Source of the DNA: Candidatus Kapaibacterium sp.
GTDB taxonomy: Bacteria > Bacteroidota > Ignavibacteria > Kapaibacteriales > Kapaibacteriaceae
NCBI GenBank assembly: GCA_018883125.1
Contig: VEQR01000001.1
Span: forward strand, 1,497 to 65,496
Reading direction: 5' to 3'
Length of the DNA stretch: 64,000 nt
Both the position numbers and the translations under genes were made by a program. The notes under the pieces were generated by a model. The model saw nothing but the letters and a program-made list of their open reading frames with translations, ran no database searches and had not been told where the DNA came from. Below are positions 5,311 to 53,400 of the stretch, piece by piece (the first letter of the stretch is position 1; every line of letters begins with the position of its first letter).

Positions 5311-5547
5311 GGAAATTACGGAGGTACGGAATTACGGAATTACGGAATGACGGAATGACTGATGACTGATTACTGATTACTGATGACTGATTACTGGGCG
5401 ATATGGGTTTTGCTCATTTTCATCAGTCGACGGTCATCAGTCATCAGTCATCAGTCATCAGTCATCAGTCATCAGTCATCAGTAATCAGTCATCAGTCAT
5501 CAGTAATCAGTCATCAGTAATCAGTCATCAGTCATCAGTCATCAATC
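5311..5547. repeat. Inverted microsatellite arrays. About 4 copies of GAATTACG (8-mer) plus about 7 copies of ACTGATG/ACTGATT (7-mer) lie on the left, then a roughly 38 bp spacer, then about 17 copies of CATCAGT/AATCAGT in inverse orientation.
   Basis: Read directly from the sequence. The left and right arrays are reverse complements of each other and should form a long imperfect hairpin. The element lies between the mazF 3' end and the hutU start. Confidence 0.9.
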
Positions 5548-5886
5548 TGCAACCAACGTCTTGAGCTTTGCTAACACGTCATTGAGTTGATTTGGTTTCA
5601 GCGAGCCCACTTTTCGAGCGGATCGGGCTTTCCAATCAACACAACGAATCTGGTCGACAAGGATAGCACCATCAAGACCTTGATCGCTGGTGATGCTGAC
5701 TTCAAAGGGGTAGCCTTTGCGAACGCTCGTGATCGGGCAGACGATGGCCAGTCCCGATGCTCGATTGTAGAGTATCGGTGATATCACGACTGCGGGACGC
5801 CGACCGCGCTGCTCGCTACCGAGGGTTGGGTCGAAGCTCAGCAGTACGACGTCACCACGACCCGGAGCTGATGCCATAGCTACCAA
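5542..5886 (-). CDS. mazF: MazF/PemK-family endoribonuclease toxin (type II toxin-antitoxin module)
   Basis: 114 aa. GDVVLLSFDPTLGSEQRGRRPAVVISP...GLAIVCPITS..KGYPFEV closely parallels E. coli MazF (GDLIWVDFDPTKGSEQAGHRPAVVLSP...CLCVPCTT.SKGYPFEV). Confidence 0.88.
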   Translation of the reverse strand: MVAMASAPGRGDVVLLSFDPTLGSEQRGRRPAVVISPILYNRASGLAIVCPITSVRKGYPFEVSITSDQGLDGAILVDQIRCVDWKARSARKVGSLKPNQLNDVLAKLKTLVAD

Positions 5887-6125
5887 ACCTCCTTACCCTG
5901 CGGTCCGTCGAATTCAATGATCTGGTGTCTCGTTTCCGGAGTTATATCCTTGACGAGGTCGACCAACGCATATGGGTCCGGGGTCTCGACTGCGCGTACG
6001 ATCAATTCTCCGTCCTGGAGATGAAGTTCGACCAGGCGATTATCTCCGAGGCCCATCTCATCGATGACGATTTTTGGAATGCGTAATGCCATACTGTTTC
6101 CCCATTTCTGGATACGAGCTTTCAT
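5880..6125 (-). CDS. mazE: MazE-family antitoxin (AbrB/SpoVT-type swapped-hairpin fold)
   Basis: 81 aa. KWGNSMALRIPK...DGELIV...LVKDITPETRHQIIEFDGPQGKEVW parallels E. coli MazE (KRWGNSPAVRIP...DGKLII...[25 protein letters not shown]). Its stop overlaps the mazF start by 7 nt. Confidence 0.85.
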   Translation of the reverse strand: MKARIQKWGNSMALRIPKIVIDEMGLGDNRLVELHLQDGELIVRAVETPDPYALVDLVKDITPETRHQIIEFDGPQGKEVW

Positions 6126-6228: not shown

Positions 6229-6588
6229 CTAGGTATGCGACGACAGCTGATGATCGATATCATCAAGCGTCTGCTGACTCAGGCGCTTGGATTCAAAGAT
6301 CGATCGGAGCATGTCAAACGAATAGATGCCGGTGTCGTGTCCGTCTTTCCACGACGCCTGGATGCCGTAATTGCCAACGGGCGTAAGAGCAGCAATGTCG
6401 TTCATGCCGGGGGCGAGGGTTTTCATGCCGGGGAAAACGATCTGACCCATGATCTGCTCACCGGAGCAGTGGGCGCATGGACAGGCGTCCCGCAGGTCAG
6501 ATAGGAGGATACAGGATTCGAGTCCGTCCGACCAGGTGCTACAGAGCACGGCGGCGTTGCGCCGTTTCAGTGATAAGGGGCGAAGCAT
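6229..6588 (-). CDS. DUF971 family protein (gamma-butyrobetaine hydroxylase-like N-terminal domain). The start is uncertain, and the ORF extends to 6672.
   Basis: WSDG...[13 protein letters not shown]...[24 protein letters not shown] matches the DUF971 signature. It is divergent from asnS. Confidence 0.6.
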
Positions 6589-7978
6589 GACGCAAACTTC
6601 GCCAAGTTCTCGCGTATTTTCGCGAATGCAATCGCGATACAAATCCTTTGTTGCCATCGAAGACTTGGCCAATCACATTGGCGAAACCGTCACCCTGAAT
6701 GGTTGGGTGTACGACAAGACCGAGAAGGGCAAGCTCATCTTTATCAAACTCCGCGACGGTAGCGGAATCGTGCAGTGCGTGCTCTTCAAGCCGAACGTCT
6801 CCGAAGAGATTGCGGGCAATGCTCAGCACCTCACGCAGGAGTCCAGCGTGTCGATCACCGGCACGGTTCGTGCGGAACAGCGAGCCCCCTCCGGAGTTGA
6901 GCTTGATGTGACCGATGTGCGCATTTGGCAGGTCTCGAAGGACTACCCGATAACGCCGAAAGAACACGGTGTGGAGTTTCTAATGGAGCACCGCCACCTG
7001 TGGTTGCGTTCTGCGCGTCAGCATGCGATCATGCGCGTGCGCGCTCGGGTGATCAAGGCCATCCGTGATTTCTTTGATGGCAATGGCTTCCGGCTGATGG
7101 ACTCGCCGATCTTTACGCCGAATGCCTGCGAGGGCACATCGACGTTGTTCGAGACGGAGTACTTCGATCTTGGCAAGGCCTACCTCACGCAGTCGGGCCA
7201 GCTCTATGCCGAAGCAAGTGCCATGGCACTTGGCAAGGTCTATACGTTTGGACCGACCTTCCGTGCCGAGAAGTCCAAGACGCGCCGTCACCTGACGGAG
7301 TTTTGGATGGTAGAGCCGGAGATGGCTTACTTTGACATCAATGATGACATGGATCTGGCGGAAGACCTCGTCGAGTATATCGTGCAGTCGGTCCTGAAGG
7401 ACTGTCAGCGCGAACTCGCTACACTTGGCCGCGATGTCTCCAAGCTCGAAGCTGTGCGTCGCCCCTTCTATCGTATGTCCTACACCGAAGCTGTGGACTG
7501 GCTGAATAAGAACGATGTGAAGCTCAATCGCAAGCAGCCCGATGGTTCGGAGATCCAGGTAGACTTCCCGTGGGGCGAAGACTTCGGTGCTCCGCAGGAA
7601 GAAGCTATCATGCAGCAGTTCGACCGTCCGTGCATCATCCACCGCTACCCATCGGAAGTGAAAGCGTTTTACATGAAGCGCGATCCGGAGAACACGAACG
7701 TCGTGCTGGCCATGGATATGCTTGCTCCGGAAGGGGCTGGCGAAATCATCGGCGGCTCGCAGCGGGAAGACAACCACGATCTGCTCCTCGAACGCCTGCG
7801 TCACGAAAACCTTCCCGAGGATGCGTTCCAATGGTACCTCGACCTGCGCAAGTTCGGCTCCGTCCCGCACTCCGGCTTTGGTTTGGGCGTTGAACGGACC
7901 GTGAAGTGGATCACCGGCGCCGAGCATATTCGAGAAGTCATCCCGTTCCCACGGATGATCTATCGGATCGTGCCGTGA
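6587..7978 (+). CDS. asnS: Asparagine--tRNA ligase, with an alternative start at about 6626 (MQSRYKSF)
   Basis: Class IIb aminoacyl-tRNA synthetase with an N-terminal OB anticodon-binding domain ([25 protein letters not shown]) and class II motifs ([25 protein letters not shown]). The high Asn-specific similarity extends along the whole length. Confidence 0.9.
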
Positions 7979-7988
7979 GCCGCTGAGC

Positions 7989-8312
7989 GGAATTACTGAA
8001 GTACGGAAGTACGGAAGTACCGAAGTACTGAAGTACGGAAGTACCGAAGTACGGAAGTACCGAAGTACGGAAGTACCGAAGTACGGAAGTACCGAAGTAC
8101 GGAAGTACCGAAGTACAATGGAGTGGCACCATATATGTCGCTTTCGTGGGAATGACAGACAATCACTTGTTTCGGCAGACCCCAATCGAGTGCATCAGTA
8201 CTTCAGTACTTTAGCAATTCAGTACTTCAGTACTTCAGTAATTCAGTACTTCAGTACTTCAGTACTTCAGTAATTCAGTAATTCAGTACTTCAGTAATTC
8301 ACTACTTCACCT
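7989..8312. repeat. Inverted 8-mer microsatellite arrays. About 16 copies of GAAGTACG/GAAGTACC lie on the left, then a roughly 80 bp spacer, then about 14 copies of CAGTACTT/CAGTAATT, which are the reverse-complement units.
   Basis: Read directly from the sequence. The right array runs up to the pepF start codon. Confidence 0.9.
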
Positions 8313-10100
8313 ATGGACACAACCAAGACAAACGGCTCTGAAAACATTTTCTGGGACCTCTCAGATCTTTACGCAACGCTCGATGAGACGGGCCTTGAGG
8401 GCGACCTCGCGCGCATTGGCGATCGCACGAAGGCTTTTCGTGAAAAGTGGCACGGTCGGTTCGCAACTTCCAGCATCGCCGAGTTCATGGAGATGGTTGC
8501 CGAATACGAGCAACTAAACGAGGACTTCGGTCGAATGGGTGCCTTTGCGCATCTGCAATGGTCAACCGACTCGGAAAATGTGGAATACGGCAAGCTGATG
8601 CAGCGTGTTACGGAAACGCTGTCAAAGGCATCGAACGAGATCATCTTCGTTGACACAGAGCTATCGAGCCTTTCTGCCGAGCGCATTGCCGAATTGATGG
8701 CGGCTCCGGAGATGGCCTCGCGCAAGCACTGGCTGGAAGTCGTTATGGACTATAAGCCCCATACCCTCAGCGAAGACGTGGAGCAGGCGCTCAATGCCAA
8801 GTCCGTGACATCGCGCTTTGCTTGGGTTCGTCTTCACGACGAAGTGTCGGGTGCGATGACGTTCTCGTTTCGTGGACAGGAGTACACGATTGCGCAGATG
8901 ACGAAGATGCTCTACGATGGCGATCGCCAGACACGGAAGGAAGCAGCTGAGACGATCTCGGCTGTACTCAAGACAGATGCCAAGATGCATGCCTACGTGT
9001 TCAACACGATCATCGGCGATTGCGAAGTCAATGACCGTTTGCGCTCCTACCCAACGTGGGTTTCAAGCCGCAACCTCTCGAATGAGGTGTCCGATGCATC
9101 CGTTCAGGCCCTCGTCGATGCCGTCGTCTCTCGCTACGATCTGGTTCATCGGTATTTCGCTCTGAAGAAGGGGCTCCTCGGACTTGATAAACTGTATGAC
9201 TATGATCGGTATGCTCCGGTGACCGAAGTATCGGATTTCTGGACGTGGGATCAGGCACGGGCTATCGTGACGGATTCATACATGTCATTCGATAGGCGAG
9301 CAGGCGAGATCGCCTCGATGTTCTTCGAAAAGAACTGGATCCATGCGCCAGTTCGCAAGGGCAAGCGCAGCGGTGCCTACAGCGCGGGTACCATCGCCTC
9401 CGTGCACCCGTATGTGTTCATGAACTACACCGGCACTAGCCGCGATGTGCAGACGCTGGCACACGAGCTTGGCCACGGCGTGCATCAATACCTGTCACGT
9501 CAGCAGGGCCCCCTGCAGATGCACACGCCCCTTACCATCGCCGAAACGGCAAGCGTGTTTGGGGAGATGATCACGTTCAAGAAGATGTATGAGCAGACCA
9601 CGAGCGACGAAGCAAAGCTCGCACTGCTCATGTCCAAGCTCGACGGAATGATCGCAACGGTGTTCCGTCAGGTTGCCCTTAATCGTTTCGAAGAAGCCGT
9701 TCACATTGCACGCCGCACGCAGGGCGAGCTCTCGCTGGATCAGATCAACGAGATCTGGCTCACTACACAGAAGAGCCAATTCGGAGATTCCGTCGAACTC
9801 AGCGATGGCTATGAAGTGTGGTGGTCCTACATCTCGCACTTCATTCACACGCCGGGCTACGTGTACGCCTACGCCTTCGGTGAATTGCTTGTGCTGGCGC
9901 TGTATCAGATCTACCTGCAAAGCCCGGAGACATTCCCCGACAAGTACATCGAGCTCCTCTCGTCAGGGGGCTCTAAGCGTCCGGAAGAACTTCTCGCCCC
10001 CTTCGGACTCGACATTACCAGTCCAACATTCTGGCACAACGGACTGTCGTTTATCGACAGCTTCCTGGGTCAGGCTGAAGCGTTGGCTGGGAAGAAATAG
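8313..10100 (+). CDS. pepF: Oligoendopeptidase F (M3B family metallopeptidase)
   Basis: 595 aa with the zinc motif HELGHGVHQYL (HEXXH) and a downstream Glu ligand region. Overall it resembles PepF. Confidence 0.88.
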   Translation: MDTTKTNGSENIFWDLSDLYATLDETGLEGDLARIGDRTKAFREKWHGRFATSSIAEFMEMVAEYEQLNEDFGRMGAFAHLQWSTDSENVEYGKLMQRVTETLSKASNEIIFVDTELSSLSAERIAELMAAPEMASRKHWLEVVMDYKPHTLSEDVEQALNAKSVTSRFAWVRLHDEVSGAMTFSFRGQEYTIAQMTKMLYDGDRQTRKEAAETISAVLKTDAKMHAYVFNTIIGDCEVNDRLRSYPTWVSSRNLSNEVSDASVQALVDAVVSRYDLVHRYFALKKGLLGLDKLYDYDRYAPVTEVSDFWTWDQARAIVTDSYMSFDRRAGEIASMFFEKNWIHAPVRKGKRSGAYSAGTIASVHPYVFMNYTGTSRDVQTLAHELGHGVHQYLSRQQGPLQMHTPLTIAETASVFGEMITFKKMYEQTTSDEAKLALLMSKLDGMIATVFRQVALNRFEEAVHIARRTQGELSLDQINEIWLTTQKSQFGDSVELSDGYEVWWSYISHFIHTPGYVYAYAFGELLVLALYQIYLQSPETFPDKYIELLSSGGSKRPEELLAPFGLDITSPTFWHNGLSFIDSFLGQAEALAGKK

Positions 10101-10103
10101 CGA

Positions 10104-11021
10104 TCACTCGCTGGCGAGTCCCGCCAGTTTCATCACCGCGTTGACGTAGTCATCGCTGTTGTTGTAGTGGTGGATGGCCTTGCGCTGTTGCTCGGGTGTT
10201 TTACCCCAGCCGGCGCGATCAAGGTAGTTCGCAACGCTAAAGACGGCATCGTCGATCTGGTACAGATCGATGGTGCCGTCGTCATTTCCGTCGGCAGCTG
10301 ACGAAACGTAGGATGACGGCAAAAACTGCGTGAGTCCAAAAGCACCGGCCCACGAGCCCCGTAGAGTAAGCGTGTTCATGGTCTTGCGCATCTGAATCGA
10401 GTGGAGTGCCTTAAGCTGCTGCACAGCCCAATTCACCTTGCGGTCAGCACGCTTGACAAGGGCCTCTCGCACACTGTCTATCTTCGATGAATCGATCGAC
10501 TTCGCCTTCATCACGAGTGCAGTGTTCGACTCGATGAACTCGGACTCGTTGCTCAGCAGTACCGATAGGTACACGCTTGGCACGTGGTGCTTGCCGGTAA
10601 CGCGTCCATGCTTGGTTTCTACCCAGAGTAGGGCCCCGATGATGGAAGGGGGCACACCATGCACAGAGTCTGCCCGCTGAAGTAGGGTCTTGTGACGGTC
10701 TAGAAACTCCCGCACATTCGATACGGCCTCTGCCGACCAGTTGTGTGAATAGTCGGGTTTGGTGGCGAAGTTTGTGACGTTTGTGCGGACGTACTTCTCA
10801 TCGAACGACGTCATCGAATCACGAAGCAGCAGCTCGATGTAGTCTTTGTCCACGCCACGGGAGATCGCAGCATCAGCGGCGCGCGACAGAGGATGAGATG
10901 AGGCGCCAGTCTTTGGTGAACGATCGTCACCATTTGATGTGTCTTGCGTAAATGTTGCCATCGAAACTACGAGTGCAACGACGGAAGTGAGAACGGTCGA
11001 GAGAAGCGGAAGCATATTCAT
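10104..11021 (-). CDS. Lytic murein transglycosylase (MltB-like, SLT_2 domain). The start is taken at a signal-peptide Met; the ORF extends to 11138.
   Basis: C-terminal SWAGAFGLTQFLPSSY...DDGTIDLY...ANYL is typical of MltB-family transglycosylases. The mature protein begins with a signal peptide MNMLPLLSTVLTSVVALVV. Confidence 0.7.
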   Translation of the reverse strand: MNMLPLLSTVLTSVVALVVSMATFTQDTSNGDDRSPKTGASSHPLSRAADAAISRGVDKDYIELLLRDSMTSFDEKYVRTNVTNFATKPDYSHNWSAEAVSNVREFLDRHKTLLQRADSVHGVPPSIIGALLWVETKHGRVTGKHHVPSVYLSVLLSNESEFIESNTALVMKAKSIDSSKIDSVREALVKRADRKVNWAVQQLKALHSIQMRKTMNTLTLRGSWAGAFGLTQFLPSSYVSSAADGNDDGTIDLYQIDDAVFSVANYLDRAGWGKTPEQQRKAIHHYNNSDDYVNAVMKLAGLASE

Positions 11022-11045: not shown

Positions 11046-11756
11046 ATGACAATGGTCAACACTCGAACCTTTTTGGTCGTCGCGCTCGGCTTTGCTCTGC
11101 CGCTGATGATGTGTGCTCAACCGCGTCTCCAAATGCAATCGTTGGTGGATTGGGGTGTGGTAGTACCCAGTGGATCACTGACGAAGCAAGAGTCCGTCAA
11201 GTATCGCGTTCCGATCAAGAACACCGGAAACAAGACGCTCGTGATCTCGTCGGTACGTCCACAATGCGGATGTACAACAGCGCCACTGGAACGTGACACG
11301 TTACGTCCGGGCGAAGAGACGGGCATGAACATCACCCTCACATTGCCAGCCGGCAGCGGGGTGATCGACAAGTATGTGACGGTGTTCAGCAACGACTCCG
11401 CTGGCAGCCATGTTGTGAAGCTTCGGGCAGAAGTGCAGCGCCCCCTTCAGCTGTCATCAAGCTTTCTGGGGTTTAATCAGGGCTATGTCGGTGAGCCAAC
11501 ACGCTCAAAGATCAAGCTCACAACGCAGGTAGACGAAGATGTGACGATCACAATTGAACCGGTAACGCCCGGCCTGTCGGTCGTTGGCCCGTCAAAACTG
11601 ACAGCTCGCAAAGGCGTTGCCGTTCCGATCGAAGTTGAGTATGTGCCGAACGCGTTCGGTGCGTTCAACGTGGCACTGAAGATCAAGACAACGCTGAAAG
11701 ACTACGAGGTTATCGACATCACCGGCTACGGGATCGCTGACGCTCCGAAGAGGTAA
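11046..11756 (+). CDS. DUF1573 domain-containing secreted protein
   Basis: Signal peptide MTMVNTRTFLVVALGFALP. DUF1573 core with IKNTGNKTLVISSVRPQCGCT followed by a second beta-rich domain. The ORF track starts upstream at 10944, and the signal-peptide Met is preferred. Confidence 0.65.
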   Translation: MTMVNTRTFLVVALGFALPLMMCAQPRLQMQSLVDWGVVVPSGSLTKQESVKYRVPIKNTGNKTLVISSVRPQCGCTTAPLERDTLRPGEETGMNITLTLPAGSGVIDKYVTVFSNDSAGSHVVKLRAEVQRPLQLSSSFLGFNQGYVGEPTRSKIKLTTQVDEDVTITIEPVTPGLSVVGPSKLTARKGVAVPIEVEYVPNAFGAFNVALKIKTTLKDYEVIDITGYGIADAPKR

Positions 11757-13590
11757 CCCGCTCGTAGATGATAAAACCGCCATCGCGATATCTCTCACGA
11801 AGCGTTGGCACGGTTGACCAGTTTGTAGCATCATTGATGCGACATACAAAAGTGGCCCGACGGTCGATGTCGCCGTTGATCAGCCACGGTTCCCAATCAT
11901 CGGCCGCGATGCCCTTGGCGGCAGAACTCAAGTGGTATGGCTTCTGCGTGTAGAAGAGATGCGCATAGCTCTTCATGGTGAGGGGCTTTACATACACATC
12001 CTTGCCCCTCAATGACTGATAGAAGTCAAGAGCAGCCCCCTGCGAATAGGCCTCGATCTTCGGAGCAACAAGAGGAAGAAACGTGAAGACGAACACCATC
12101 ACACTGGCGTACAGTGTGATGAGTCCGGCAAGGGGCTTGCGTTTACGCAGGATTACGTTCACGACTGCGCCCGCGATGAGCACGAGTCCAATCAATGGCT
12201 CTACACCCAACCACTCAACATTGCGTGACATTGCCTCGCGAAGAAACGGATCGCGAAACGATGGCAGCGAGAGCATCCACTCGCTGTGCATGAATGCAAG
12301 CGGAACGATAATGGCTATCCCACCAAGCAGGAAAGAATGCGCAAGGATGATGAACGATGTGAGGTATGGGGTTCTGTAGGGGCGAGACGCAGTCTCGCCC
12401 GTGTTCATCATGTCGTGGTGGCGAGACGCAGTCTCGCCCGTGTTCATCATGTCGTGGTGGCGAGACGCAGTCTCGCCCGTGTTCATCATGTCGTGGTGGC
12501 GAGACGCAGTCTCGCCCGTGTTCATCATGTCGTAGGGGCGAGACGCAGTTTCGCCCGTGTTCATCAGGCCCCTTCTCACGATCCACATCGCCGCCAGGTA
12601 GGTCAGCGGGATGTAGGCCATAGAGCTGTAGTGGACGATCTTGGTGGTGACGGCGGAGAAGACCACCAGGACAACGAAGAAGAGTGCCGTCATCCACTGA
12701 CGCATGCGCTGAACGTCTGCGGTTTCGTCCTGTGCTGCCCGTAGTCCGCCAAAGAAAAACACCGATGATGGATAACAGCCGATCAACAGAACGATGCTGT
12801 GATAATACCACGGTTGGGCGTGGCCGGCCTCGCCGGTTGTGAGCAGACGCCACTGGTAGTGAATGTTCTCGAGTAGGAAGGTTGGCCCGTTCTGCATGGC
12901 ATCAATGCCAAGCCAGACTGCCGGAAGCGTCAGGGCCGTGACGGTGATGATGGCAAGATCTCTGATCGGGAAGGCAATGGCGGTTGACCGTCGCTGCCAT
13001 ATCCACATCACCAGTGCTGTAAGAACAACAAGCCCAAGGCCCACGGGCCCCTTCGTCATGACGGCAAGGCTTGCATACAGTCCGGCCTGAAAGGGGCGCC
13101 CCTTCCCTTCAAGCTGACCTCTGATGATCTGCCAGATGGACAGGAAGATGAACAGATTGAAGGTCGGGTCGATGATTCCCGAGCGTGCATAGAAGTGGGG
13201 AAGGAGCGTGCCGAGATACACCATCGGCCAGAGAACTCCCATGGCACTCCCGCCAATGCGACGTCCGATGTGATGCAGCACCAAGAGCGTGATGACCCCG
13301 ACGATGGCATTGGGAAGTCTCGCAGCAAACTCGTTGATGCCGAAGACGTGCATCGATAGTGCCTGCATCCATACGAAGAGAGGGGGCTTTTCGGTGAACG
13401 GACGATAATCGATTTGCATATGCAGATAATCGCCCGTAGCGATCATCTCGCGCGCGCATTCGGCAAAGTTGATCTCGTCCCAGTCGAACAGGCGCACCGA
13501 CCCCAGAAAGGGTATAAAGAGGAGAAGTCCAACGGCGAGGATCAGCAGGCGCTGCCGCCGCACATCATGTAAGGTGGCGCTTGTGTTCAC
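11719..13590 (-). CDS. ArnT/PMT-like membrane glycosyltransferase (GT39/GT83 fold) carrying an internal 13-aa tandem repeat
   Basis: N-terminus LFDWDEINFAECAREMIATGDYL...FTEKPPLFVWMQA and its multi-TM topology are typical of ArnT/dolichyl-phosphate-mannose protein mannosyltransferase-like enzymes. There is an internal (MMNTGETASRHHD)x~6 insertion. Confidence 0.75.
   Translation of the reverse strand: MNTSATLHDVRRQRLLILAVGLLLFIPFLGSVRLFDWDEINFAECAREMIATGDYLHMQIDYRPFTEKPPLFVWMQALSMHVFGINEFAARLPNAIVGVITLLVLHHIGRRIGGSAMGVLWPMVYLGTLLPHFYARSGIIDPTFNLFIFLSIWQIIRGQLEGKGRPFQAGLYASLAVMTKGPVGLGLVVLTALVMWIWQRRSTAIAFPIRDLAIITVTALTLPAVWLGIDAMQNGPTFLLENIHYQWRLLTTGEAGHAQPWYYHSIVLLIGCYPSSVFFFGGLRAAQDETADVQRMRQWMTALFFVVLVVFSAVTTKIVHYSSMAYIPLTYLAAMWIVRRGLMNTGETASRPYDMMNTGETASRHHDMMNTGETASRHHDMMNTGETASRHHDMMNTGETASRPYRTPYLTSFIILAHSFLLGGIAIIVPLAFMHSEWMLSLPSFRDPFLREAMSRNVEWLGVEPLIGLVLIAGAVVNVILRKRKPLAGLITLYASVMVFVFTFLPLVAPKIEAYSQGAALDFYQSLRGKDVYVKPLTMKSYAHLFYTQKPYHLSSAAKGIAADDWEPWLINGDIDRRATFVCRINDATNWSTVPTLRERYRDGGFIIYERVTSSERQRSRSR
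12366..12585. repeat. 39-bp tandem repeat (about 6 copies) inside the ArnT-like CDS. Each unit contains the palindrome GGGGCGAGACGCAGTCTCGCCC.
   Basis: Perfect 39-nt periodicity read from the sequence. It is in-frame, encoding MMNTGETASRHHD units. The same palindrome occurs intergenically at about 41377 and, as a variant, at 24520-24640. Confidence 0.9.
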
Positions 13591-19902: not shown

Positions 19903-20070
19903 TCACGTCATCCCCGCAAAAGCGCGTCATCCCCGCAAAAGCGCGTCATCCCCGCGAAAGCGCGTCATCCCCGCGAAAGCGCGTCATCCCCGCGAAAGCG
20001 CGTCATCCCCGCGAAAGCGGGGATCCATAACGCATGGATTCCCGCTTCCGCGGGAATGACGGAGGGTCCC
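19903..20070. repeat. About 6 tandem copies of the 19-bp unit GCGCGTCATCCCCGCGAAA, ending in two hairpins (CATCCCCGC-GAAA-GCGGGGAT and ATTCCCGC-TTCC-GCGGGAAT)
   Basis: Read directly from the sequence. It lies between the DUF1501 stop and the GT2 start. Confidence 0.9.
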
Positions 20071-24329: not shown

Positions 24330-24380
24330 AAGGGACTCCAGTGGGCCATCTCCGGCCCAGAATACATGGTACGTGCTGCG

Positions 24381-24462
24381 TGCGGAAGGAGAGACTCGAA
24401 CTCTCACAGGTTGCCCCGCCAGATCCTAAGTCTGGTGCGTCTGCCAATTTCGCCACTTCCGC
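24381..24462 (-). tRNA. tRNA-Leu (anticodon TAG), with a long variable arm
   Basis: Reverse complement: GCGGAAGTGGCGAAATTGGCAGACGCACCAGACTTAGGATCTGGCGGGGCAACCTGTGAGAGTTCGAGTCTCTCCTTCCGCA. It has a 7-bp acceptor stem, an anticodon loop CTTAGGA, and a long extra arm with a TPsiC arm GTTCGAGTC. Confidence 0.85.
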
Positions 24463-24715
24463 AGAGCCACAAAGATAGTGACGAGAGACGAGAGACAAGA
24501 GACAAGAGACGAGAGACGAGAGACCGTAGGGGCGAGACGAAGTCTCGACCAAGAGACGAGAGACCGTAGGGGCGAGACGAAGTCTCGACCAAGAGACGAG
24601 AGACCGTAGGGGCGAGACGAAGTCTCGACCAAGAGACGAGAGACAAGCCATTGATTTACTAGCCCCGGGCCTTGGCCCGGGGAAAGAGAGACGAGAGACT
24701 ACCTCAATTTCGTGC
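24463..24715. repeat. Composite repeat block made of a GAGACGA/GAGACAA 7-mer microsatellite, three roughly 40-bp units containing CCGTAGGGGCGAGACGAAGTCTCGACC, and the palindrome CCCCGGGCCTTGGCCCGGGG
   Basis: Read directly from the sequence. It lies immediately 5' of tRNA-Leu on the coding strand and downstream of the csaA-like gene. Confidence 0.9.
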
Positions 24716-27222: not shown

Positions 27223-30200
27223 ATGAAGATTCCGCGCCGATTTACGACGTCAGGAACAACCCCATACGAGATGTTTCGCTACACGATCAGAGAATCGGTG
27301 CTGCGAAACCAAAGCGGTAAAGAGATATTCCGGATGGACCATGTAGAAGTGCCAGAGGCATGGTCGCAGGTTGCCACCGACATTCTCGCTCAGAAGTATT
27401 TCCGCAAGGCCGGAGTACCGGTGACGGATGATGCCGGTGCACCGGTGCTGAATGAGGATGGAACTCCGAAGACCGGGGCCGAAACGTCGGTTCGTCAGGT
27501 GGTCCATCGGCTGGCAGGTTGCTGGCGGTGGTGGGGCGAGAAGTACGGGTACTTTGATACCGTAGAGGACGCTCAGGCGTTTTACGATGAGATCGCCTAT
27601 ATGCTTCTCAAGCAGATGGCCGCACCGAATTCGCCGCAGTGGTTCAACACCGGTCTCAACTTTGCGTATGGAATCACCGGATCGGCGCAGGGACACCTCT
27701 ATGTTGATCCTGACACCAAGACGCTGACACGTTCAGCCGACGCCTATACGCACCCTCAGCCCCATGCCTGTTTCATCCAGTCCGTCAATGATGATCTGGT
27801 GAACGAAGGCGGCATCTTTGATCTCGCAACTCGCGAAGCACGCATCTTCAAGTACGGTTCCGGTACGGGTTCGAACTTTTCCAATCTCCGTGGCGAGAGC
27901 GAGCGACTTTCCGGAGGGGGCGTCTCCAGCGGACTGATGTCGTTCCTGAAGATTTTTGACCGCGCAGCAGGTGCTATCAAGAGTGGTGGTACAACGCGTC
28001 GTGCCGCGAAGATGGTGATCGTAAATGTCGATCATCCGGACATCGAAAAGTTCATCGAATGGAAGGCAAAGGAAGAGGAAAAGGTTGCGGCACTGGTTGC
28101 CGGATCGAAGATCGCATCGACCTTCCTGCACGCCATCTCTGATGCAGCGCAGCAGGGTGGTACGGATGAGCAGACCAACGAGCGTCTGCGCGTGCTTATT
28201 CAGCGTGCACTCAACCGTGGCGTGCCGTACAACATCATCAAGCGGACGCTGGCGCTGATTGATCAGGGCTTTACGAACATCGACTTTGCGCAGTTCGATA
28301 CGCATTACGAGGGCGAAGCCTACAACACGGTTTCGGGTCAGAACTCAAACAACTCTGTTCGGGTGACGAACGACTTCATGGAAGCAGTCATCACTGACAG
28401 TTCGTGGAACCTGACGTGGCGAACAGACAGCACCAAGCACGTCACCGTGCGGGCACGCGACCTGTGGAACAAGATCAACATGAGCTCGTGGAAGAGCGCC
28501 GACCCAGGTCTGCAGTTCGATACCACGATCAACGAATGGCATACATGTCCGAACGACGGTCGTATCAACGGGTCGAATCCGTGCTCGGAATACATGTTCC
28601 TTGATGACACGGCATGTAACCTGGCCTCGTTAAATCTGGCTCACTTCTATGATGAGCCATCGCAGACCATCAAGATCGACGACTACCGTCATGCCGTGCG
28701 AATCTGGACGTCCGTCCTTGAGATCTCCGTTCTGATGGCCCAATTCCCGTCGGCAGAGGTTGCTCAGAATAGCTACGACTTCCGCACGCTTGGCCTTGGC
28801 TATGCCAACCTTGGTACGGTGCTCATGATGATGGGCATCCCGTATGACTCACCAAAGGCTCTTGCGATCTGCGGCGCACTCTCCTCGATCATGACTGGTG
28901 AGTCCTACGCGGCAAGCGCCGAAATGGCGGCCGATGTGGGCCCCTTCCCGAAATACGACAACAACCGCGACGCGATGCTTCGCGTCATCCGGAATCACAG
29001 GCGTGCAGCATACAACGCAGCAGACAGCGAGTTCGAAGGGCTAACGATTACGCCCATGGGTATCAGCGAGGAACTGTGCCCAGCCGACCTAATGGTGGCA
29101 GCTCGCACTGCATGGGACAAGGCACTTGCTCTTGGGGAAGAGCACGGATATCGCAATGCCCAGGCAACAGTGATCGCCCCAACGGGGACGATCGGCTTGG
29201 TCATGGACTGCGACACCACCGGCATCGAGCCGGACTTTGCGATCGTGAAGTATAAGAAGTTGGCCGGTGGCGGTTACTTCAAGATCGTTAACCAGTCAGT
29301 GCATAAGGCCCTTGCCGCTCTCGGATATTCCGATCAGCAGATCGATGATATCGAGAAGTACTGCAAGGGGCATGGCACGCTGATCGGCTGTCCGCACATC
29401 AACCGCCAGTCGCTCAAGGCCCTGAACTTCACCGATGAGGCCATCGACGCTGTCGAACGTCAGCTCGATAGCACCTTCGATGTACGCTTTGTCTTCAACA
29501 AGTACACACTTGGCGAGGAACTCTGCCAGCAGCTCGGCTTCAGCGCGCAGCAGCTTGACGATATGCAGTTCGATATGCTGACCGAACTGGGCTTCTCCTC
29601 GGAGCAGATATCGGAGGTGAACGACTATATCTGCGGTACGATGATGATAGAAGGGGCTCCTCACATCAAGGATGAGCACCTGCCGATCTTCGACTGCGCC
29701 AATAAGTGCGGCAAGCGCGGCGAACGCTACATCGATTACATGGCCCACGTGCGCATGATGGCCGCAGCGCAGCCGTTTATCAGCGGTGCTATCTCCAAGA
29801 CCATTAACATGCCCGCAGAAGCCTCCGTGGACAACGTTGGCGATGTGCACTTGGCTTCGTGGCGACTGATGCTCAAGGCCATTGCGCTCTACCGCGACGG
29901 ATCGAAGCTTTCTCAGCCCCTTAACGCCAGCAACGACAACTTTGATGAGATGGTGCTGTTGGGCGATCAGGACGATTGGGACGAAACCGTCGATCAGAAG
30001 GCCATCCAGAAGGTCATCGTCGAACGCGTCTACCAGCGCGCCGAGCGCCGTCGTCTGCCGAAGCGCCGTCACGGATACGTCCGTGAGGCAACCGTGGGTG
30101 GACACAAGGTGTACATTCGCACAGGTGATTTCGATGATGGCTCGCTGGGAGAGATATTCATCGACATGTACAAGGAAGGTGCATCCTTTAAGGGGCTTCT

Positions 30201-30696
30201 CAACTGCTTTGCCGTTCTAACGTCCAAGGCCCTTCAGTACGGCGTTCCGTTGGACGAACTGGTGGACACCTTCACCTTCACGCGGTTCGAGCCAGCCGGC
30301 TTTGTGGAAGGTCACGAGGCCATCAAGAATGCCACGTCCATTCTCGACTACATCTTCCGTACGCTTGGGTATGACTATCTACAGCGCACCGACTTTGTCC
30401 ACGTACCACAGGTTGATGCAGCTCAATCCAAGGCAAGCCTCGAAACGCCGGTTGCCAGCTCAGAAGCCCCTTCCCAGACTTCAGCAGATGTGATCTCTCC
30501 TGCACCCACCTACAAAGAGGTCATGGAAGCAGTCTCTGGTTCGGTGGATCACGATGGAGCCAAGTCGAAGCTTCTCGATCCCAAGAACATGGGTTACACA
30601 GGAGAGGCTTGTTCAAAGTGCCAATCCACACAGGTTGTTCGAAATGGGGCGTGCACAATGTGCTTGAACTGCGGAACAACTACAGGTTGCTCGTAA
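27223..30696 (+). CDS. nrdJ: Adenosylcobalamin-dependent (class II) ribonucleoside-diphosphate reductase
   Basis: 1157 aa. The N-terminus and core resemble NrdJ throughout, including the active-site region [16 protein letters not shown]. There is a C-terminal Zn-ribbon [22 protein letters not shown]. Confidence 0.92.
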
Positions 30697-36640: not shown

Positions 36641-37972
36641 ATGCACACGATGTGTGCGGTCTGCGGCGTACTGACGAGCCTGTATCTGTTGATAGCGGCC
36701 GTGCCGTCGTATGCACTGCTGCAAGATTCAACCTTGGAACAACGTCGCCGGCTTGCGGAGCATGCCCGGGTGATGTTTCCTCTTGATGGCGTTAAGCTCA
36801 CGATCCAGAACGTTACACTTGCCGCGTTCCCGGAGATAGGCCTGGTTGTTGAGTGTGACGGAGACTGCAAAGTACTCGACACGCTGAAAGCCTCAGCGCT
36901 AACGGTGATGGAGAATGGCGTAAAGCGGCCCGTTACGCGAATTCACAAGATCGACGTTAAGGAACGCGTACCAGTGGACTTCATGTTCGTGCTTGACGTT
37001 ACGGGTACGATGCAGCCATACATCAATGGCGTTCGAAACAACATTGAGGCATTTGTCCAGAATCTCTCCAAGCGAGGTATTGATTACCAGCTTGGCCTAG
37101 TGTTGTACAGCGACGTTGTTGAGGCGATCTATGAGCCAACCGACAGCGTTGGCAAATTCCTCGGCTGGATGAGCAAGGTTCAGGCATTTGGTGGATTTGA
37201 TGAGAAGGAAAATGCTCTTCAGGCCCTCTACGATGCCAGCCGTGCCCGATTCCGTCCGGCCGCCAACCGCGTTGCAGTGCTCGTGTCAGACGCCGGCTTC
37301 CATCAGGTTGGAGAAAGGGGCAGTGGGCGAACAAAGTTCAATGTTGAGACCATGATCGAGCACTTGAACGAGCTAAAGGTGCGCGCTTTTTGTATCGTTC
37401 CGTCAAACCTCAAACCCTATCAACGACTGGCAGAGGGTACAAAGGGTACGATCTTCGATCTGAACCAGTCGTTCGCAAAGATTCTTGATCTCTATTCGCA
37501 GCGACTGACGAATCTTTATACGATCTTTTACAAGAGCGACACGAAGGTTCGTAGCGATTCTATAAATGTTGCTCTTCTGGACGAACGAAAGAGAGAGCTG
37601 GTCAAGCAGATCATCCCGATCGTTGAGATCGGACGGAAGATCATAATTGAAAACCTTCTATTCCCCGTTGCTTCGTCGGTTCTTCCTGATAGCGTTGAAG
37701 AGCTCGAAGTCCTTAACGAATTCATGAAGAGCCGTCCTTCCGTGGTGGTGCGAATAGAAGGTCACACTGACAATACCGGTACTCCAAAGCAGAACAAGGC
37801 GTTGTCGCTATTACGTGCCGAAGCTGTTCGCGCCTACATGCTCAAGAAAGGGCTAGACCCCAAACGACTTATGGCCGTCGGACTTGGCTCAACGAAGCCT
37901 ATCGGTGATAACACAACGGAGTTTGGACGAAAGCTGAACCGACGGACGGAGATCGTGATCGTGGGTAAGTGA
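36641..37972 (+). CDS. VWA-domain protein with a C-terminal OmpA-like peptidoglycan-binding domain
   Basis: VWA region (FMFVLDVTGTM MIDAS-like motif ... AVLVSDAGFH). C-terminal OmpA_C signature (VVVRIEGHTDNTGTPKQNKALSLLRAEAVRAYMLKKG...NRRTEIVIVGK). Confidence 0.75.
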   Translation: MHTMCAVCGVLTSLYLLIAAVPSYALLQDSTLEQRRRLAEHARVMFPLDGVKLTIQNVTLAAFPEIGLVVECDGDCKVLDTLKASALTVMENGVKRPVTRIHKIDVKERVPVDFMFVLDVTGTMQPYINGVRNNIEAFVQNLSKRGIDYQLGLVLYSDVVEAIYEPTDSVGKFLGWMSKVQAFGGFDEKENALQALYDASRARFRPAANRVAVLVSDAGFHQVGERGSGRTKFNVETMIEHLNELKVRAFCIVPSNLKPYQRLAEGTKGTIFDLNQSFAKILDLYSQRLTNLYTIFYKSDTKVRSDSINVALLDERKRELVKQIIPIVEIGRKIIIENLLFPVASSVLPDSVEELEVLNEFMKSRPSVVVRIEGHTDNTGTPKQNKALSLLRAEAVRAYMLKKGLDPKRLMAVGLGSTKPIGDNTTEFGRKLNRRTEIVIVGK

Positions 37973-37974
37973 CG

Positions 37975-38420
37975 CCTTCGGCGTGGGGGACGCTTCGCGT
38001 GGGGGACGCCTTCGGCGTGCGAGACCTTCGGTGCGAGACGCCTTCGGCGTGCGAGACCTGCGGTGCGAGACGCCTTCGGCGTGTGGGACGCTTCGCGTGG
38101 GGGACCTGCGGTGCGAGACGCCTTCGGCGTGCGAGACGCTTCGCGTGGGGGACGCCTTCGGCGTGTGGGACGCCTTCGGCGTGTGGGACCTGCGGTGCGA
38201 GACGCCTTCGGCGTGCGAGACCTGCGGTGTGGGACCTGCGGTGCGAGACGCCTTCGGCGTGCGAGACGCTTCGCGTGGCGTCATCCCGAACGAAGTGAGG
38301 GACCTAGTGTGGGACGCTTCGCGTGTGGGACGGTGGTGTCACTCGTCTCTCGTACCCCGGGCCAAGGCCCGGGGCTATTATGGATGGATTGTCACTTGTC
38401 ACTCGTCACCCGTCACTCGT
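37975..38420. repeat. Mosaic GC-rich minisatellite of three short unit types (GRGACGCCTTCGGCGTGY, GRGACCTGCGGTGY and GRGACGCTTCGCGTGGG). It is followed by the palindrome CCCCGGGCCAAGGCCCGGGG and GTCACTYGTCAC units.
   Basis: Read directly from the sequence. About 19 units occur in irregular order. The first unit type contains a UUCG-loop hairpin (ACGCC-TTCG-GCGT). Confidence 0.9.
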
Positions 38421-39068
38421 CTACATCCCCAGCCCCTTGCCGCGAAATAGCTTGGCATATGCCGCATTGCCGGGGTGGGTGGTATCCATGCAGTTGACCA
38501 CGGTGACCGGACCCATGATGCGGGAGCGGATTTCGAAGGAACCAATAGTGCGTGTGGTGCGCGGGACAATGGTCGAAACATCGACTTGCGAGAGGTTGCC
38601 GACCAAGTAGAGGGTTGCCGGAAGTTCGTTCTTGGTAAGAAGCCCTCCGATCATCGACACGATAACGGACTGCTTGCCAAGAGGGAGCTTCGTTTCGGTC
38701 GACATTGCTTTGCGGAGGTTGCGCCGATACTCTCCAATTGATGCACACCATGGATCCGTCGTTGGCGAACCGATGATCATATCAGTCGTTGCAGTGTCTG
38801 CTCCAATGTCGCGCGTGATAACGTCGATGATACTGTCGGCACGACGCTGCTCAATGCGACTGAAGACCACGGTGTACACAACGCGCTTGGCGCTCTTGAG
38901 CTTTTGACGAGAGAGTACCTCACCCGGCTTGGTGGAATCACGGTATAGCGCGCCCAGGACAACTGCCGTAACGGCCAGGACAGCAACGATGATGTAAAAG
39001 TACAGCCAACCATTCTTTGTGGTTGGCGGCAGCATCGACGCATTGTCGTCAAACTCTTCTGTGCTCAT
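38421..39068 (-). CDS. Hypothetical membrane-anchored protein (N-terminal TM helix, extracytoplasmic domain)
   Basis: 215-aa ORF. The TM helix is WLYFYIIVAVLAVTAVVLGAL. It is the last gene after yebC and purF on the minus strand, and its start is 4 nt from the purF stop. No family was recognised. The GTCACTCGTC repeats supply its last codons. Confidence 0.5.
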   Translation of the reverse strand: MSTEEFDDNASMLPPTTKNGWLYFYIIVAVLAVTAVVLGALYRDSTKPGEVLSRQKLKSAKRVVYTVVFSRIEQRRADSIIDVITRDIGADTATTDMIIGSPTTDPWCASIGEYRRNLRKAMSTETKLPLGKQSVIVSMIGGLLTKNELPATLYLVGNLSQVDVSTIVPRTTRTIGSFEIRSRIMGPVTVVNCMDTTHPGNAAYAKLFRGKGLGM

Positions 39069-41240: not shown

Positions 41241-41269
41241 TAGGTTTTAGGTGTTGGGTTTTGGGTGTT

Positions 41270-41460
41270 GGGTTTGGGTTAGTCTAGTCATTTTGGCCGA
41301 AGCCCAGAGCAAGCAAGGGGCAGGGTTGATTTCGTTGATTCGGGCGAGGGCCGGGGGTTGATTTCGTTGATTCGGGCGAGACTGCGTCTCGCCCCTACAT
41401 GTCACTCCGTACCTCCGTCACTCCGTACCTCCGTCACTCCGTACCTTCTTCTCGTATATC
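41270..41460. repeat. Composite repeat: a G/T-rich microsatellite (GGTGTTGGGTTTTGG...), a duplicated 29-bp GGGTTGATTTCGTTGATTCGGGCGAG, the palindrome GGGCGAGACTGCGTCTCGCCCC, and GTCACTCCGTACCTCC x3
   Basis: Read directly from the sequence. The last repeat units extend into the 3' end of the GNAT CDS and encode its final residues (…SDGGTE*). Confidence 0.85.
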
Positions 41461-51407: not shown

Positions 51408-53141
51408 ATGCATGCCTTTGACTTTCTCGATGAACTCGCTCTGTTGTGTCTTGCGGCACTTGTAGTACTGCGCGTCTTCCGCCAGATTCATCTGCCCCCT
51501 GTCATCGGGTTGATCGTTACGGGGCTCCTGTTGGGTCCTACGGGGTTCGGGATAGTCCAGCAGGACCAGATCATATCCTCCATCGCCGAGATCGGGGTGA
51601 TGCTCCTGTTGTTTACGATCGGTCTGGAGTTCTCGCTAGACGAGCTCAGGAAACTCCGCTCGATCGTGCTGATCGGTGGCCCGCTGCAGATAATCCTTAC
51701 CACGCTCGCGACAACGGCGTTGGTATATGGGGTATCTGTCGTTGCATCCACCGCCTATTCGACCTCTGAAGCAATTCTGATTGGAATGGCCTCTGCCTTG
51801 AGTTCAACGGCGATCTGTATCAAGCTGTTGAGCGATCGTCGGGAGCTTATGCAACCACAGGGACGGGCGGCACTTGGCATTCTCATCTTCCAGGACATTG
51901 CCGTTGTCCCGATGATGATCATCGTTACGCTATTGGACACGCGTCAGGACGTGAACCCCGGTGAGATAACCGTGCGTTTGCTGCTGCTTGTTGCTGTGAC
52001 TGTTGCCATGATCGTTGGCATGCGACTGGTTCTTCCGCGTCTTACACCCCACCTGGCACGCTCCTCGAACCCGGAAGTCCTAATTCTTGCTGCGCTGGGC
52101 TTGTGTTTTGGTGCGGCATGGGTAACGTCGCTGGCTGGCATATCTATGGCTCTTGGAGCATTCATAGCCGGCATGGCTATCGCCGGTAGTGATGACGGCC
52201 ATGCCATTGGTAAGGCTGTAGAGCCGCTGCGCGATGCGTTCACCAGCATGTTTTTCCTTTCGGTGGGACTGTTGGTACACGTGGTGTGGGCGACCTTACC
52301 GGCGAACATTCTCACGGCGATGCTCATCCTATTGGTCAAGGGTGTTGTTGTAAGTCTGGTGCTGATCCTGGTTCGCGTTCCGATACGGACTGCTATCACC
52401 GCCGGCATCACACTTGCACAGGTGGGAGAGTTCTCCTTTGTACTTGCGTCCGTTGGAATGGATTACGGCGTTATCACTTCGACAGAGTTTCAGAATCTTC
52501 TGGTGACCATCATCATCACCATGATCGTAACGCCACTTCTCGTGACCTTTGCTCCTATAGTTGCTGAGCGTCTATCGCCCCTTGCGAGATTGACGCCCAC
52601 TCTACGCAGGTGGACAACTGATGATACCGATGGATACATCAGACTTGAGGAGGGAACTTTGCACGAAGATCAGCCGATGGTGCTCATCATCGGTGCTGGC
52701 GTTCTCGGACTCAATGTCGCGCACGTCCTGGCTCAGACAGGTATTCGATATCGTCTGCTGGAGTTGGACAGGAACAACGCTGCGGCCCTACGAGCTAAGG
52801 GAGAACCTTGCATATCGGGAGACATGACCGATGCAGACGCACTTCGTAGCGCTGGGATTCAACACGTCTCGAACGTCATCATCGCAATCAACCAGGATGC
52901 GGCCATCACGCGAGGCGTCAAACTCATCCGCTCCCTGCGTCCGGATGTCTACATCATTGTCCGCTCCCGCTACCAGCGCAACAGCAAGTCTGCCCTCGAT
53001 CAAGGAGCTGACCTAGTAATAGTGGAAGAGTTCGAGTCAAGCATCAAGATCTTCGGCTCCGTCCTTGAACACCTCGGCGTCGAACAAGACCTCATCGAAT
53101 ACCAGGAACGGTATATGCGACTGAGGCAGACGTTTTCATAG
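51408..53141 (+). CDS. CPA2-family cation:proton antiporter with a C-terminal RCK/TrkA-N domain (KefB/YbaL-like)
   Basis: About 12 TM Na+/H+ exchanger core followed by a Rossmann RCK domain (MVLIIGAGVLGLNVAHVLAQTGIRYRLLELD). Confidence 0.85.
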   Translation: MHAFDFLDELALLCLAALVVLRVFRQIHLPPVIGLIVTGLLLGPTGFGIVQQDQIISSIAEIGVMLLLFTIGLEFSLDELRKLRSIVLIGGPLQIILTTLATTALVYGVSVVASTAYSTSEAILIGMASALSSTAICIKLLSDRRELMQPQGRAALGILIFQDIAVVPMMIIVTLLDTRQDVNPGEITVRLLLLVAVTVAMIVGMRLVLPRLTPHLARSSNPEVLILAALGLCFGAAWVTSLAGISMALGAFIAGMAIAGSDDGHAIGKAVEPLRDAFTSMFFLSVGLLVHVVWATLPANILTAMLILLVKGVVVSLVLILVRVPIRTAITAGITLAQVGEFSFVLASVGMDYGVITSTEFQNLLVTIIITMIVTPLLVTFAPIVAERLSPLARLTPTLRRWTTDDTDGYIRLEEGTLHEDQPMVLIIGAGVLGLNVAHVLAQTGIRYRLLELDRNNAAALRAKGEPCISGDMTDADALRSAGIQHVSNVIIAINQDAAITRGVKLIRSLRPDVYIIVRSRYQRNSKSALDQGADLVIVEEFESSIKIFGSVLEHLGVEQDLIEYQERYMRLRQTFS

Positions 53142-53144
53142 AAT

Positions 53145-53400
53145 TACAGAGTTATAGAATTACTGAATTACTGAATTACTGAATTACGGAATTACGGAAT
53201 TACTGAATTACTGAATTACGGAATTACTGAATTACTGAATTACGGAGTTACGGAGTTACGGAGTTACGGAATTACTGAATTACGGAGTTATCAGACTCGT
53301 CACTTGTCACTTGTCACTCGTCACTCATCAGTAATCAGTAATCAGTAATCAGTAATCAGTAATCAGTAATCAGTAATCAGTAAACTCTCGTCACTCGTCT
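53145..53400. repeat. Microsatellite array of about 19 copies of GAATTACT/GAATTACG/GAGTTACG (8-mer), then a GTCACTYGTCAC spacer, then 8 copies of AATCAGT (7-mer, inverse orientation)
   Basis: Read directly from the sequence. It fills the whole gap between the convergent CPA2 antiporter gene and the cytochrome c/monooxygenase gene. Confidence 0.9.

Follow-up and report, generated by a model that had tools for sequence, protein, structure and literature searches.

Tandem heptamers arranged in inverted pairs at gene ends have been described in Xanthomonas (GGGAATC) and Nostoc (GGGGA(C/T)T) (Rehm et al. 2015, PLoS One, PMC4692102). Each Xanthomonas genome holds 70-75 convergent inverted pairs, and in both groups the G-rich strand lies at most 50 bp past a stop codon (sense) or before a start codon (antisense), sometimes overlapping the open reading frame (ORF). 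The arrays are transcribed, vary in length and sequence between related species with the pair type kept, and adjoin genes of all classes; no function was found, phase variation was deemed unlikely and a potential for G-quadruplex formation was stressed (PMC4692102). This report concerns a pair of inverted octamer arrays between asnS, a tRNA synthetase gene, and pepF, encoding an M3 oligoendopeptidase F, in a 64,000-nt stretch of Candidatus Kapaibacterium sp. (contig VEQR01000001.1, positions 1,497 to 65,496, forward strand; hereafter the window). The geometry of paired polar arrays is thus already published for the Xanthomonas and Nostoc type, with which the present arrays share intergenic tandem units of the 7-nt class, polarity, convergent inverted pairs, overlap with stop codons, turnover between related species and neighbours of varied function. 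However, the units here are octamers and heptamers lacking G-tracts (GAAGTACS, CAGTACTT, ATKACTG, GGTTTTG and others), which makes a G-quadruplex impossible; the pepF arrays have 14-16 copies and no preference for four units; many unit sequences occur per genome; the phylum is another one; and the arrays are often combined with REP-type hairpins (repetitive extragenic palindromes).

A second comparison is offered by the TAACTGA heptamers, direct repeats found directly before start codons lacking a Shine-Dalgarno (SD) motif in Beggiatoaceae, Cyanobacteria and Bacteroidetes (MacGregor 2015, Front Microbiol, PMC4679880). In some species they follow stop codons, long mixed-heptamer arrays exist in some Bacteroidetes and Cyanobacteria, and close relatives that share the gene order lack the arrays; a part in translation or rearrangement was proposed, with no function established (PMC4679880). 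The pepF array likewise lies within a few nucleotides of an SD-less start codon, and the units TTACTGA/ATTACTG at 5355 and 53327 in the window are one base off TAACTGA. The pepF unit, in contrast, is an octamer, CAGTA[C/A]TT, the units before starts resemble the reverse complement of TAACTGA-like units and not their 'forward' orientation, and inverted pairing is essentially missing from the Beggiatoaceae genome (one indirect repeat; PMC4679880).

The (ATCTTTC)n tract of hmw1A in Haemophilus influenzae is transcribed and forms a long hairpin that is cut by RNase III, expression being inverse to tract length (PMC12721329). Here, too, a simple sequence repeat (SSR) of 7-8 nt lies just upstream of a coding sequence and would form one arm of a long predicted hairpin, a plausible RNase III substrate. 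Unlike the genome-wide arrays of this lineage, the hmw1A tract is a lone, gene-specific one that precedes the gene for a surface adhesin of a host-adapted pathogen; its promoter is mapped, its length change within a population has been measured and G-rich, non-repetitive sequence makes up its right arm, features not shown for pepF. REP, BIME (bacterial interspersed mosaic element) and REPIN elements, including CGTC-tagged REPs (PMC3733652) and REPINs (PMC3116915), resemble the present arrays as intergenic mosaics by gene ends with small palindromes, for which mRNA 3'-end protection and termination are the proposed roles. REPs are palindromes of 20-40 bp with a GTAG/CGTC tetranucleotide, whereas the array units are 7-8 bp long and tandem; a decayed CGTC-REP half is present in the spacer of the pepF pair, and intact doublets lie at 20002-20060 and in orthologous spacers. 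The RAYT transposase of REP systems was not seen in the window, where no search was aimed at it. The cyanobacterial STRR sequences, tandem heptanucleotides that Mazel et al. are said to have described in 1990, are reportedly dispersed in non-coding regions in several unit families per genome, with function unknown; they differ from the present arrays in units and phylum, and inverted-pair polarity was reportedly not part of their original description.

A class of intergenic arrays across the lineage

The pepF arrays are probably one local copy of a lineage-wide intergenic satellite that grows by slippage, is associated with REP elements and has hairpin-forming arms. Most of our confidence in this interpretation comes from the classification and not from a role of the hairpin. 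The array class is present at many loci of the window and of related genomes, in every gene orientation: period-7/8 arrays occupy at least six intergenic gaps of the window and most related loci, about 20 related Kapabacteria/Ignavibacteria contigs hold many 7-8-bp arrays, and the arrays lie between tandem, convergent and divergent genes, abutting or overlapping start and stop codons. Their neighbours are mostly housekeeping or mixed genes, among them those for urocanase, mazF, asnS, pepF, trigger factor/tRNA-Leu, YebC and a Na/H exchanger. An earlier note on this DNA had proposed a phase-variation switch for pepF; that proposal is not supported by the distribution of the class, which is found between convergent stop codons (53141-53383, 38391-38421 and the junction of pepF with the SLT gene) and by housekeeping genes, and is missing at the site in some relatives. 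We infer that the element is not a pepF-specific regulator.

A first array pair, also noted earlier, is indeed present at 5314-5544, from the mazF stop to the hutU start (both genes on the - strand). It consists of AATTACGG x5, ATGACTG x6, a 23-nt spacer and TCATCAG x18, and the mazF stop codon falls inside the last TCATCAG unit of the adjoining array. Its arms are 98% complementary, and the RNA is predicted to fold at -90.6 kcal/mol (z = -8). The neighbouring mazEF toxin-antitoxin pair spans 5542-6125 on the - strand (PemK/MazF, 3e-29; MazE, 6e-8).

Between the convergent stops of a Na/H exchanger gene (+) and a Cu-monooxygenase-like gene (-), the gap at 53141-53383 contains GAATTAC[T/G] x18, GTCACT[C/T] x5 and ATCAGTA x8, with no downstream gene start. 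The arrays at 41243-41446, whose left neighbour is the yebC start, comprise GGTTTTG/GGTGTTG x5.6, a REP-like hairpin GGGCGAGACTGCGTCTCGCCC and GTCACTCCGTACCTCC x2.9; their arms are not complementary. At 38391-38421, GTCACTC x4.4 (Tandem Repeats Finder) abuts the stop of a - strand gene (38421-39068). Finally, GACGAGA x6.4 (24480-24524) lies 18 nt from the 5' end of tRNA-Leu (24380-24462, -) as part of a composite repeat region that extends to about 24700.

At the convergent pepF-SLT junction, the two genes are separated by a 3-nt gap in the window (10100-10104) and in six relatives, and by an array-core-array insert of 141-274 nt exactly at this junction in five others (L002, L005, L008, L024 and L027). 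The terminal units of the L008 insert (TAG GTT...AAC CTA) provide the stop codons of both genes. L024 and L027 show the same termini, and the final few codons of pepF vary in line with these inserts. In the window and 47 loci (about 0.4 Mb), the spacer cores are single-copy, and no target-site duplication was evident at the arrays. Since the cores are single-copy, the arrays are not a classical miniature inverted-repeat transposable element, an identity rejected within this sample of about 0.4 Mb.

Organization of the asnS-pepF gap

A 334-nt gap separates the asnS stop from the pepF ATG, both genes lying on the + strand. The upstream gene (6449-7978) encodes an asnS-like class II aminoacyl-tRNA synthetase of the Asn/Asp/Lys type (Pfam tRNA-synt_2, 9.5e-73; tRNA_anti-codon, 1.2e-16). 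The identity of the downstream gene (8313-10100) as pepF, assigned earlier from sequence, is borne out by matches to Peptidase_M3 (4e-48) and Peptidase_M3_N (4e-16) and by 96% identity to proteins of Kapaibacterium/Ignavibacteria metagenome-assembled genomes (MAGs); its start codon has the same position as in homologues. Gene calls in the window are plain longest-ORF calls.

The TGA stop codon of asnS lies 9 nt ahead of the left array start called by Tandem Repeats Finder (7988). A short unique linker of 11 nt, GCCGCTGAGCG (7979-7989, +), leads from this stop to the first repeat unit and makes a 4-bp mini-hairpin in the predicted fold. The left arm (7990-8116, +) has 16 units GAAGTAC[G/C], which Tandem Repeats Finder scores at 195 and 223 for periods 8 and 16. 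Direct reading and Tandem Repeats Finder give 16.1 copies with 87% matches at period 8 (7988-8116), and at period 16 the latter gives 94% matches over 8.1 copies of GAAGTACGGAAGTACC. Units 1 (GAATTACT) and 5 (GAAGTACT) match right-arm units exactly in reverse complement, and the remainder of the arm arose by roughly sixfold amplification of a 16-nt dimer, GAAGTACG-GAAGTACC. The G-rich strand runs from asnS toward the gap centre.

The right arm (8195-8312, -; Tandem Repeats Finder score 174) has 14 units that read CAGTACTT/CAGTAATT on the + strand. The array proper (8195-8309) has period 8 and 14.4 copies with the consensus TCAGTACT and variants CAGTAATT (CAGTA[C/A]TT), and its G-rich unit, GAAKTACT, is on the - strand and runs from pepF toward the gap centre. 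A degenerate final unit, CACTACTT-CACCT, extends the arm to 8312, and the ATG begins at 8313. The copy numbers thus agree with the roughly 16 and 14 inverted octamers counted before, and the right array does adjoin the pepF ATG as had been stated, the distance being 3 nt from 8309, or 0 nt with the degenerate unit counted, instead of 1-2 nt. Unit counts in these ~120-nt arrays are those of a metagenome assembly taken without reads.

Between the arms lies a 78-nt single-copy spacer (8117-8194), close to the 80 bp of unique sequence reported previously, which would form the loop of the predicted hairpin. It contains a decayed half of a CGTC-tagged REP-type palindrome, CGCTTTCGTGGGAATGAC (8139-8156, +), identified by motif search and by alignment with the spacers of relatives. 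This half is one mismatch off the consensus, and the motif has 8 matches (at most 2 mismatches) in the window compared with 0 expected. The antisense ORF at 6980-8185 (-) is spurious, as the earlier note held, because spacer and left array account for its N-terminal part (...VLRYFRTSVLPYFGTSVLRYFRTSVLPYF...) and the rest is antisense to the well-supported asnS.

The orthologous site in relatives

The window pepF protein is 91-96% identical to those encoded on MAG contigs, most of them of lake or river origin, that carry the label Candidatus Kapaibacterium, Ignavibacteria or Bacteroidota. Exact-protein look-ups of the window pepF and asnS returned no contig of the same species, and genome and metagenome scans with three cluster look-ups returned other species and one duplicate population. 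On the nearest contigs the flanking genes are 83-91% identical in nucleotides, that is, they belong to different species.

The relatives L001, L002, L003, L027/L038 and L006 share one arrangement, in which the asnS stop is followed by a few G-rich heptamers (GGTTTTG, GGTGTGA, GGTTTTA, CAGGTGA), then by a CGTC-tagged REP doublet, GTCATCCCCGCGAAAGCGGGGATCC ... GGATTCCCGCTTTCGCGGGAATGAC, and then by NGTAAYTC-type octamers up to the ATG. The octamers on the ATG side number 3 in L001, L002 and L003, 11 in L027/L038 and 14 in the window. The gene-proximal units, ...CAGTAATTCACTACTTCACCT-ATG, are common to the window and L001, and the REP half at 8139-8156 is orthologous to the intact doublet in the spacers of L001, L002, L003, L027 and L006. 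Comparison of these sequences shows a seed of about three octamers by the ATG, together with the REP doublet, as the ancestral state at the pepF site; in the window lineage the right array has grown to 14 units and there is a left array of the inverted unit, which was later amplified as a 16-nt dimer.

Other relatives depart further from the window. The pair in L008 is built of other units, GGGTACT x7 and AGTACCC x13 (7-mers) on either side of a 95-nt spacer, and L010/L028, L014 and L017 have no arrays at the asnS-pepF site. That the array by the ATG is expandable, as had been suggested, follows from the different unit numbers at the same position (3, 11 or, with the 7-mer of L008, 13 in relatives and 14 in the window), as seen so far between species alone. 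L027 and L038, which represent one population in two metagenomes and are the sole same-population comparison, have identical arrays. As the other relatives are different species, turnover by slippage is shown on the between-species timescale alone.

In L004, L007, L009, L012, L042, L043 and others, a cyclic-nucleotide-binding ion-channel gene read from the other strand separates asnS from pepF, leaving only about 46 nt between the two divergent start codons. This 406-aa gene is present or absent among species whose pepF is 84-96% identical, and genomes that have it lack arrays at the site. The idea that the window spacer is a remnant of the gene was rejected, as the two have no similarity.

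Polarity of the arrays

The arrays are polar with respect to gene ends. For period-7/8 arrays of at least 3 copies, position in the intergenic gap was compared with GC skew on the + strand: the skew is positive for 21 of the 22 arrays that lie in the left third of their gap and negative for 14 of the 16 in the right third (35 of 38 concordant; binomial p = 7e-8; Spearman rho = -0.84). The G-rich strand thus reads 5'->3' off the adjacent gene end whatever the gene orientation, so that the sense strand is G-rich past stops and G-poor ahead of starts. Most arrays lie -6 to +17 nt from the gene end. The rule is kept by GTCACTC at 38391-38421, and also by pairs with non-complementary arms such as that at 41243-41446; the one exception in the window (24480) vanishes when tRNA-Leu is taken as the left neighbour.

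Within pairs, arm complementarity is at least 0.80 in 9 of 14 cases. It averages 0.73 within loci compared with 0.55 across loci (permutation p = 1e-4), despite locus-specific units.

An uncultured freshwater lineage of the Kapabacteria type has polar paired arrays as in Xanthomonas and Nostoc, pointing to a cause tied to gene ends, namely transcription, translation or repair. Since the units are unable to form G-quadruplexes, the quadruplex explanation for the class is weakened. The polarity spans complementary and non-complementary pairs, non-quadruplex units and a third unrelated phylum, so it may reflect a general mechanism and not a property of one repeat; this extension, in the form of an insulator or of a repeat addition that extends 3' ends, is speculative and we give it little weight. 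The pattern is consistent with a directional insulator of transcription or translation, in which crossing transcripts would meet first a G-rich and then a G-poor arm. It is also consistent with a repeat-adding process that extends 3' ends toward the gap centre, leaving head-to-head arrays such as (GGTTTTG)n...(CAAAACC)n that resemble fused telomeres; were this true, the elements would be scars of break repair at gene boundaries.

Predicted RNA structure and possible effects on expression

An inverted-repeat search delimits arms of 120 nt (7997-8116 and 8190-8309) that are 81% complementary. The RNA of 7970-8330 is predicted to fold at -148.2 kcal/mol, compared with -86.3 +/- 5.1 for 100 shuffled sequences (z = -12.1), as a single long hairpin of 7-bp helices with single mismatches between them. 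The spacer alone folds no better than shuffles (z = 0.24). No Rfam covariance model matched 7900-8400 at E <= 1 with permissive thresholds.

No SD motif precedes the pepF ATG, and the array leaves no room for one; an SD-like motif was found in about 27% of the crudely called window genes. With neither room nor motif for an SD between array and ATG, the promoter or leader should lie in or upstream of the array, in keeping with what the earlier note had deduced. A Bacteroidetes-type -7/-33 motif was sought by eye and none was convincing. Directly ahead of the ATG, several relatives have a weak conserved CACTAC box.

The array would grow and shrink by slipped-strand mispairing, and its most likely molecular effect would be at the RNA level. 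On read-through from asnS, the arms could pair to give an imperfect hairpin some 120 bp long, which might act as a transcript boundary by protecting the 3' end of the asnS mRNA, by serving as a pause or termination site, or as an RNase III substrate. In read-through RNA the hairpin would bury the SD-less pepF start region, leaving pepF to depend on a transcript that begins within the element or beyond it. Copy number would have little influence on this, with at most a graded effect; such an effect on pepF, by analogy with the hmw1A heptamer, is possible. For pepF itself little changes: its leader is probably SD-less and derived from repeats, and any switch is putative.

A number of observations weigh against this interpretation. 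We infer the hairpin role of the arms from a predicted fold. Folded by itself, each arm also self-pairs, at -40.6 and -25.3 kcal/mol, by way of its GTAC/AGTACT core. The differences between the arms give G.A and C.A mismatches and not G.U wobbles, and the arms have diverged independently, with a G/C dimer in the left and A/C variants in the right, a pattern that, judged from the sequences, looks like decay after a common origin and not like selection for pairing. Arms of 4-5 of the 14 pairs are non-complementary (about 0.4-0.5), so a hairpin is not the universal purpose of the class. Scans of 7800-8500 found neither a sigma-70-like promoter nor an intrinsic terminator (a GC-rich hairpin with a U-tract). 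The 38 arrays of the polarity analysis include orthologous sites that are counted repeatedly, and the number of independent sites is therefore about 14. The independent change of the arms by amplification of variant units is at the same time a signature of slippage.

Three further ideas about the RNA were set aside. The right arm alone as an unstructured leader was rejected, since it self-pairs via AGUACU (-25 kcal/mol, z = -4). Selection at the RNA level, as read from G.U wobbles, was uninformative, since the mismatches are G.A and C.A. CsrA/TRAP-like GGA or triplet arrays were dropped, these motifs being absent from the right arm and other loci.

Alternative explanations

The arrays may instead be a functionless by-product of mutation, with 7-8-nt slippage in permissive non-coding DNA, as far as the first codon of importance, and complementary arms arising by inverted duplication or template switching at the REP seed. 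The fast turnover, presence or absence between species, diversity of units, single-copy cores, independent decay of the pepF arms and array ends at or within start and stop codons all fit this view, as does the connection drawn between polymerase slippage and heptamers, which form the most frequent class of long SSRs in prokaryotes (Mrazek 2007, as cited in PMC4679880). However, the by-product explanation accounts neither for the inward G-rich polarity at 35 of 38 arrays, including non-complementary pairs, nor for the recurrence of the same polarity in Xanthomonas and Nostoc, and we regard it as unlikely.

Phase-variable or tunable control of pepF, in which slippage would alter the number of octamers between promoter and ATG or the length of a hairpin in the 5' untranslated region, is improbable. 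It draws on the array end 3 nt from an SD-less ATG, on unit numbers of 3, 11 and 14 among relatives and on the hmw1A precedent (PMC12721329). However, the same class lies between convergent stops, where there is no promoter, and by many housekeeping genes, and is not restricted to a few contingency genes (surface, host-interaction or restriction-modification); pepF itself encodes a general-metabolism peptidase of a free-living freshwater lineage with no link to the surface or to host interaction. Some relatives have no array or another gene at the site, the differences in unit number lie between species alone (83-91% nucleotide identity) with L027 and L038 identical, and with an upstream promoter the copy number would alter only the length of the 5' leader. 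On the same grounds phase variation was judged unlikely for the closest published class (PMC4692102).

Equally doubtful is multivalent binding or loading, whether of an RNA-binding protein (S1, Csp or CsrA-like), of Rho on the G-poor arm as a bidirectional insulator, or of a heptad/octad DNA-binding protein: the polarity is equal for transcripts from either side, G-poor arrays directly precede the SD-less starts of pepF, hutU and yebC, and an RNA-binding protein was considered for TAACTGA (PMC4679880), but the unit sequences differ so widely between loci that one sequence-specific binder is unlikely, no candidate protein was identified, and arms paired with each other would conceal the G-poor one.

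Other repeats and annotation of the window

Apart from the heptamer and octamer arrays, the window contains several repeats with REP or hairpin units. At 19906-20060, between a gene for a DUF1501 protein with a type IX secretion (T9SS) tail and a GT2 glycosyltransferase gene, six tandem partial REPs of 19 nt, CGTCATCCCCGCGAAAGCG, lead into a complete inverted CGTC-tagged REP doublet (20002-20060) that is REPIN-like. Long composite arrays of short hairpin units occupy 37971-38303, in a convergent gap, and 24480-24700, by tRNA-Leu; among their components are some 18 copies of GACGCCTTCGGCGTGCGA, three of a 40-bp unit containing GGGGCGAGACGAAGTCTCGACC, and palindromes CCCCGGGCC(A/T)(A/T)GGCCCGGGG. 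The ORF at 37983-38450 is probably an artefact of the first of these arrays.

A 39-bp unit is repeated 4.8 times with 97% matches at 12381-12566, each unit carrying a REP-like hairpin, GGGCGAGACTGCGTCTCGCC. The repeat is in frame (13 codons per unit) within a PMT_2-family glycosyltransferase ORF (11719-13590, -), on the downstream side of its Pfam domain; roughly 62 residues may have been inserted in frame, or the ORF call may have misjoined two genes.

Arrays of this kind break short-read assemblies and create spurious ORFs, which is relevant to the annotation of MAGs in this group. Seven related contigs (L005, L011, L018, L024, L034, L035 and L040) start or stop in or beside pepF, consistent with short-read assemblies breaking in the arrays; assembly breaks in heptamer arrays were noted for Elizabethkingia (MacGregor 2015, PMC4679880).

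Among other genes of the window, a class II ribonucleotide reductase of 1157 aa (27223-30696, +) has its barrel domain split into two stretches. Residues 280-343 of this protein give a sub-threshold TACO1/YebC_N-like match (34 bits, cutoff 36), which may represent an inserted domain.

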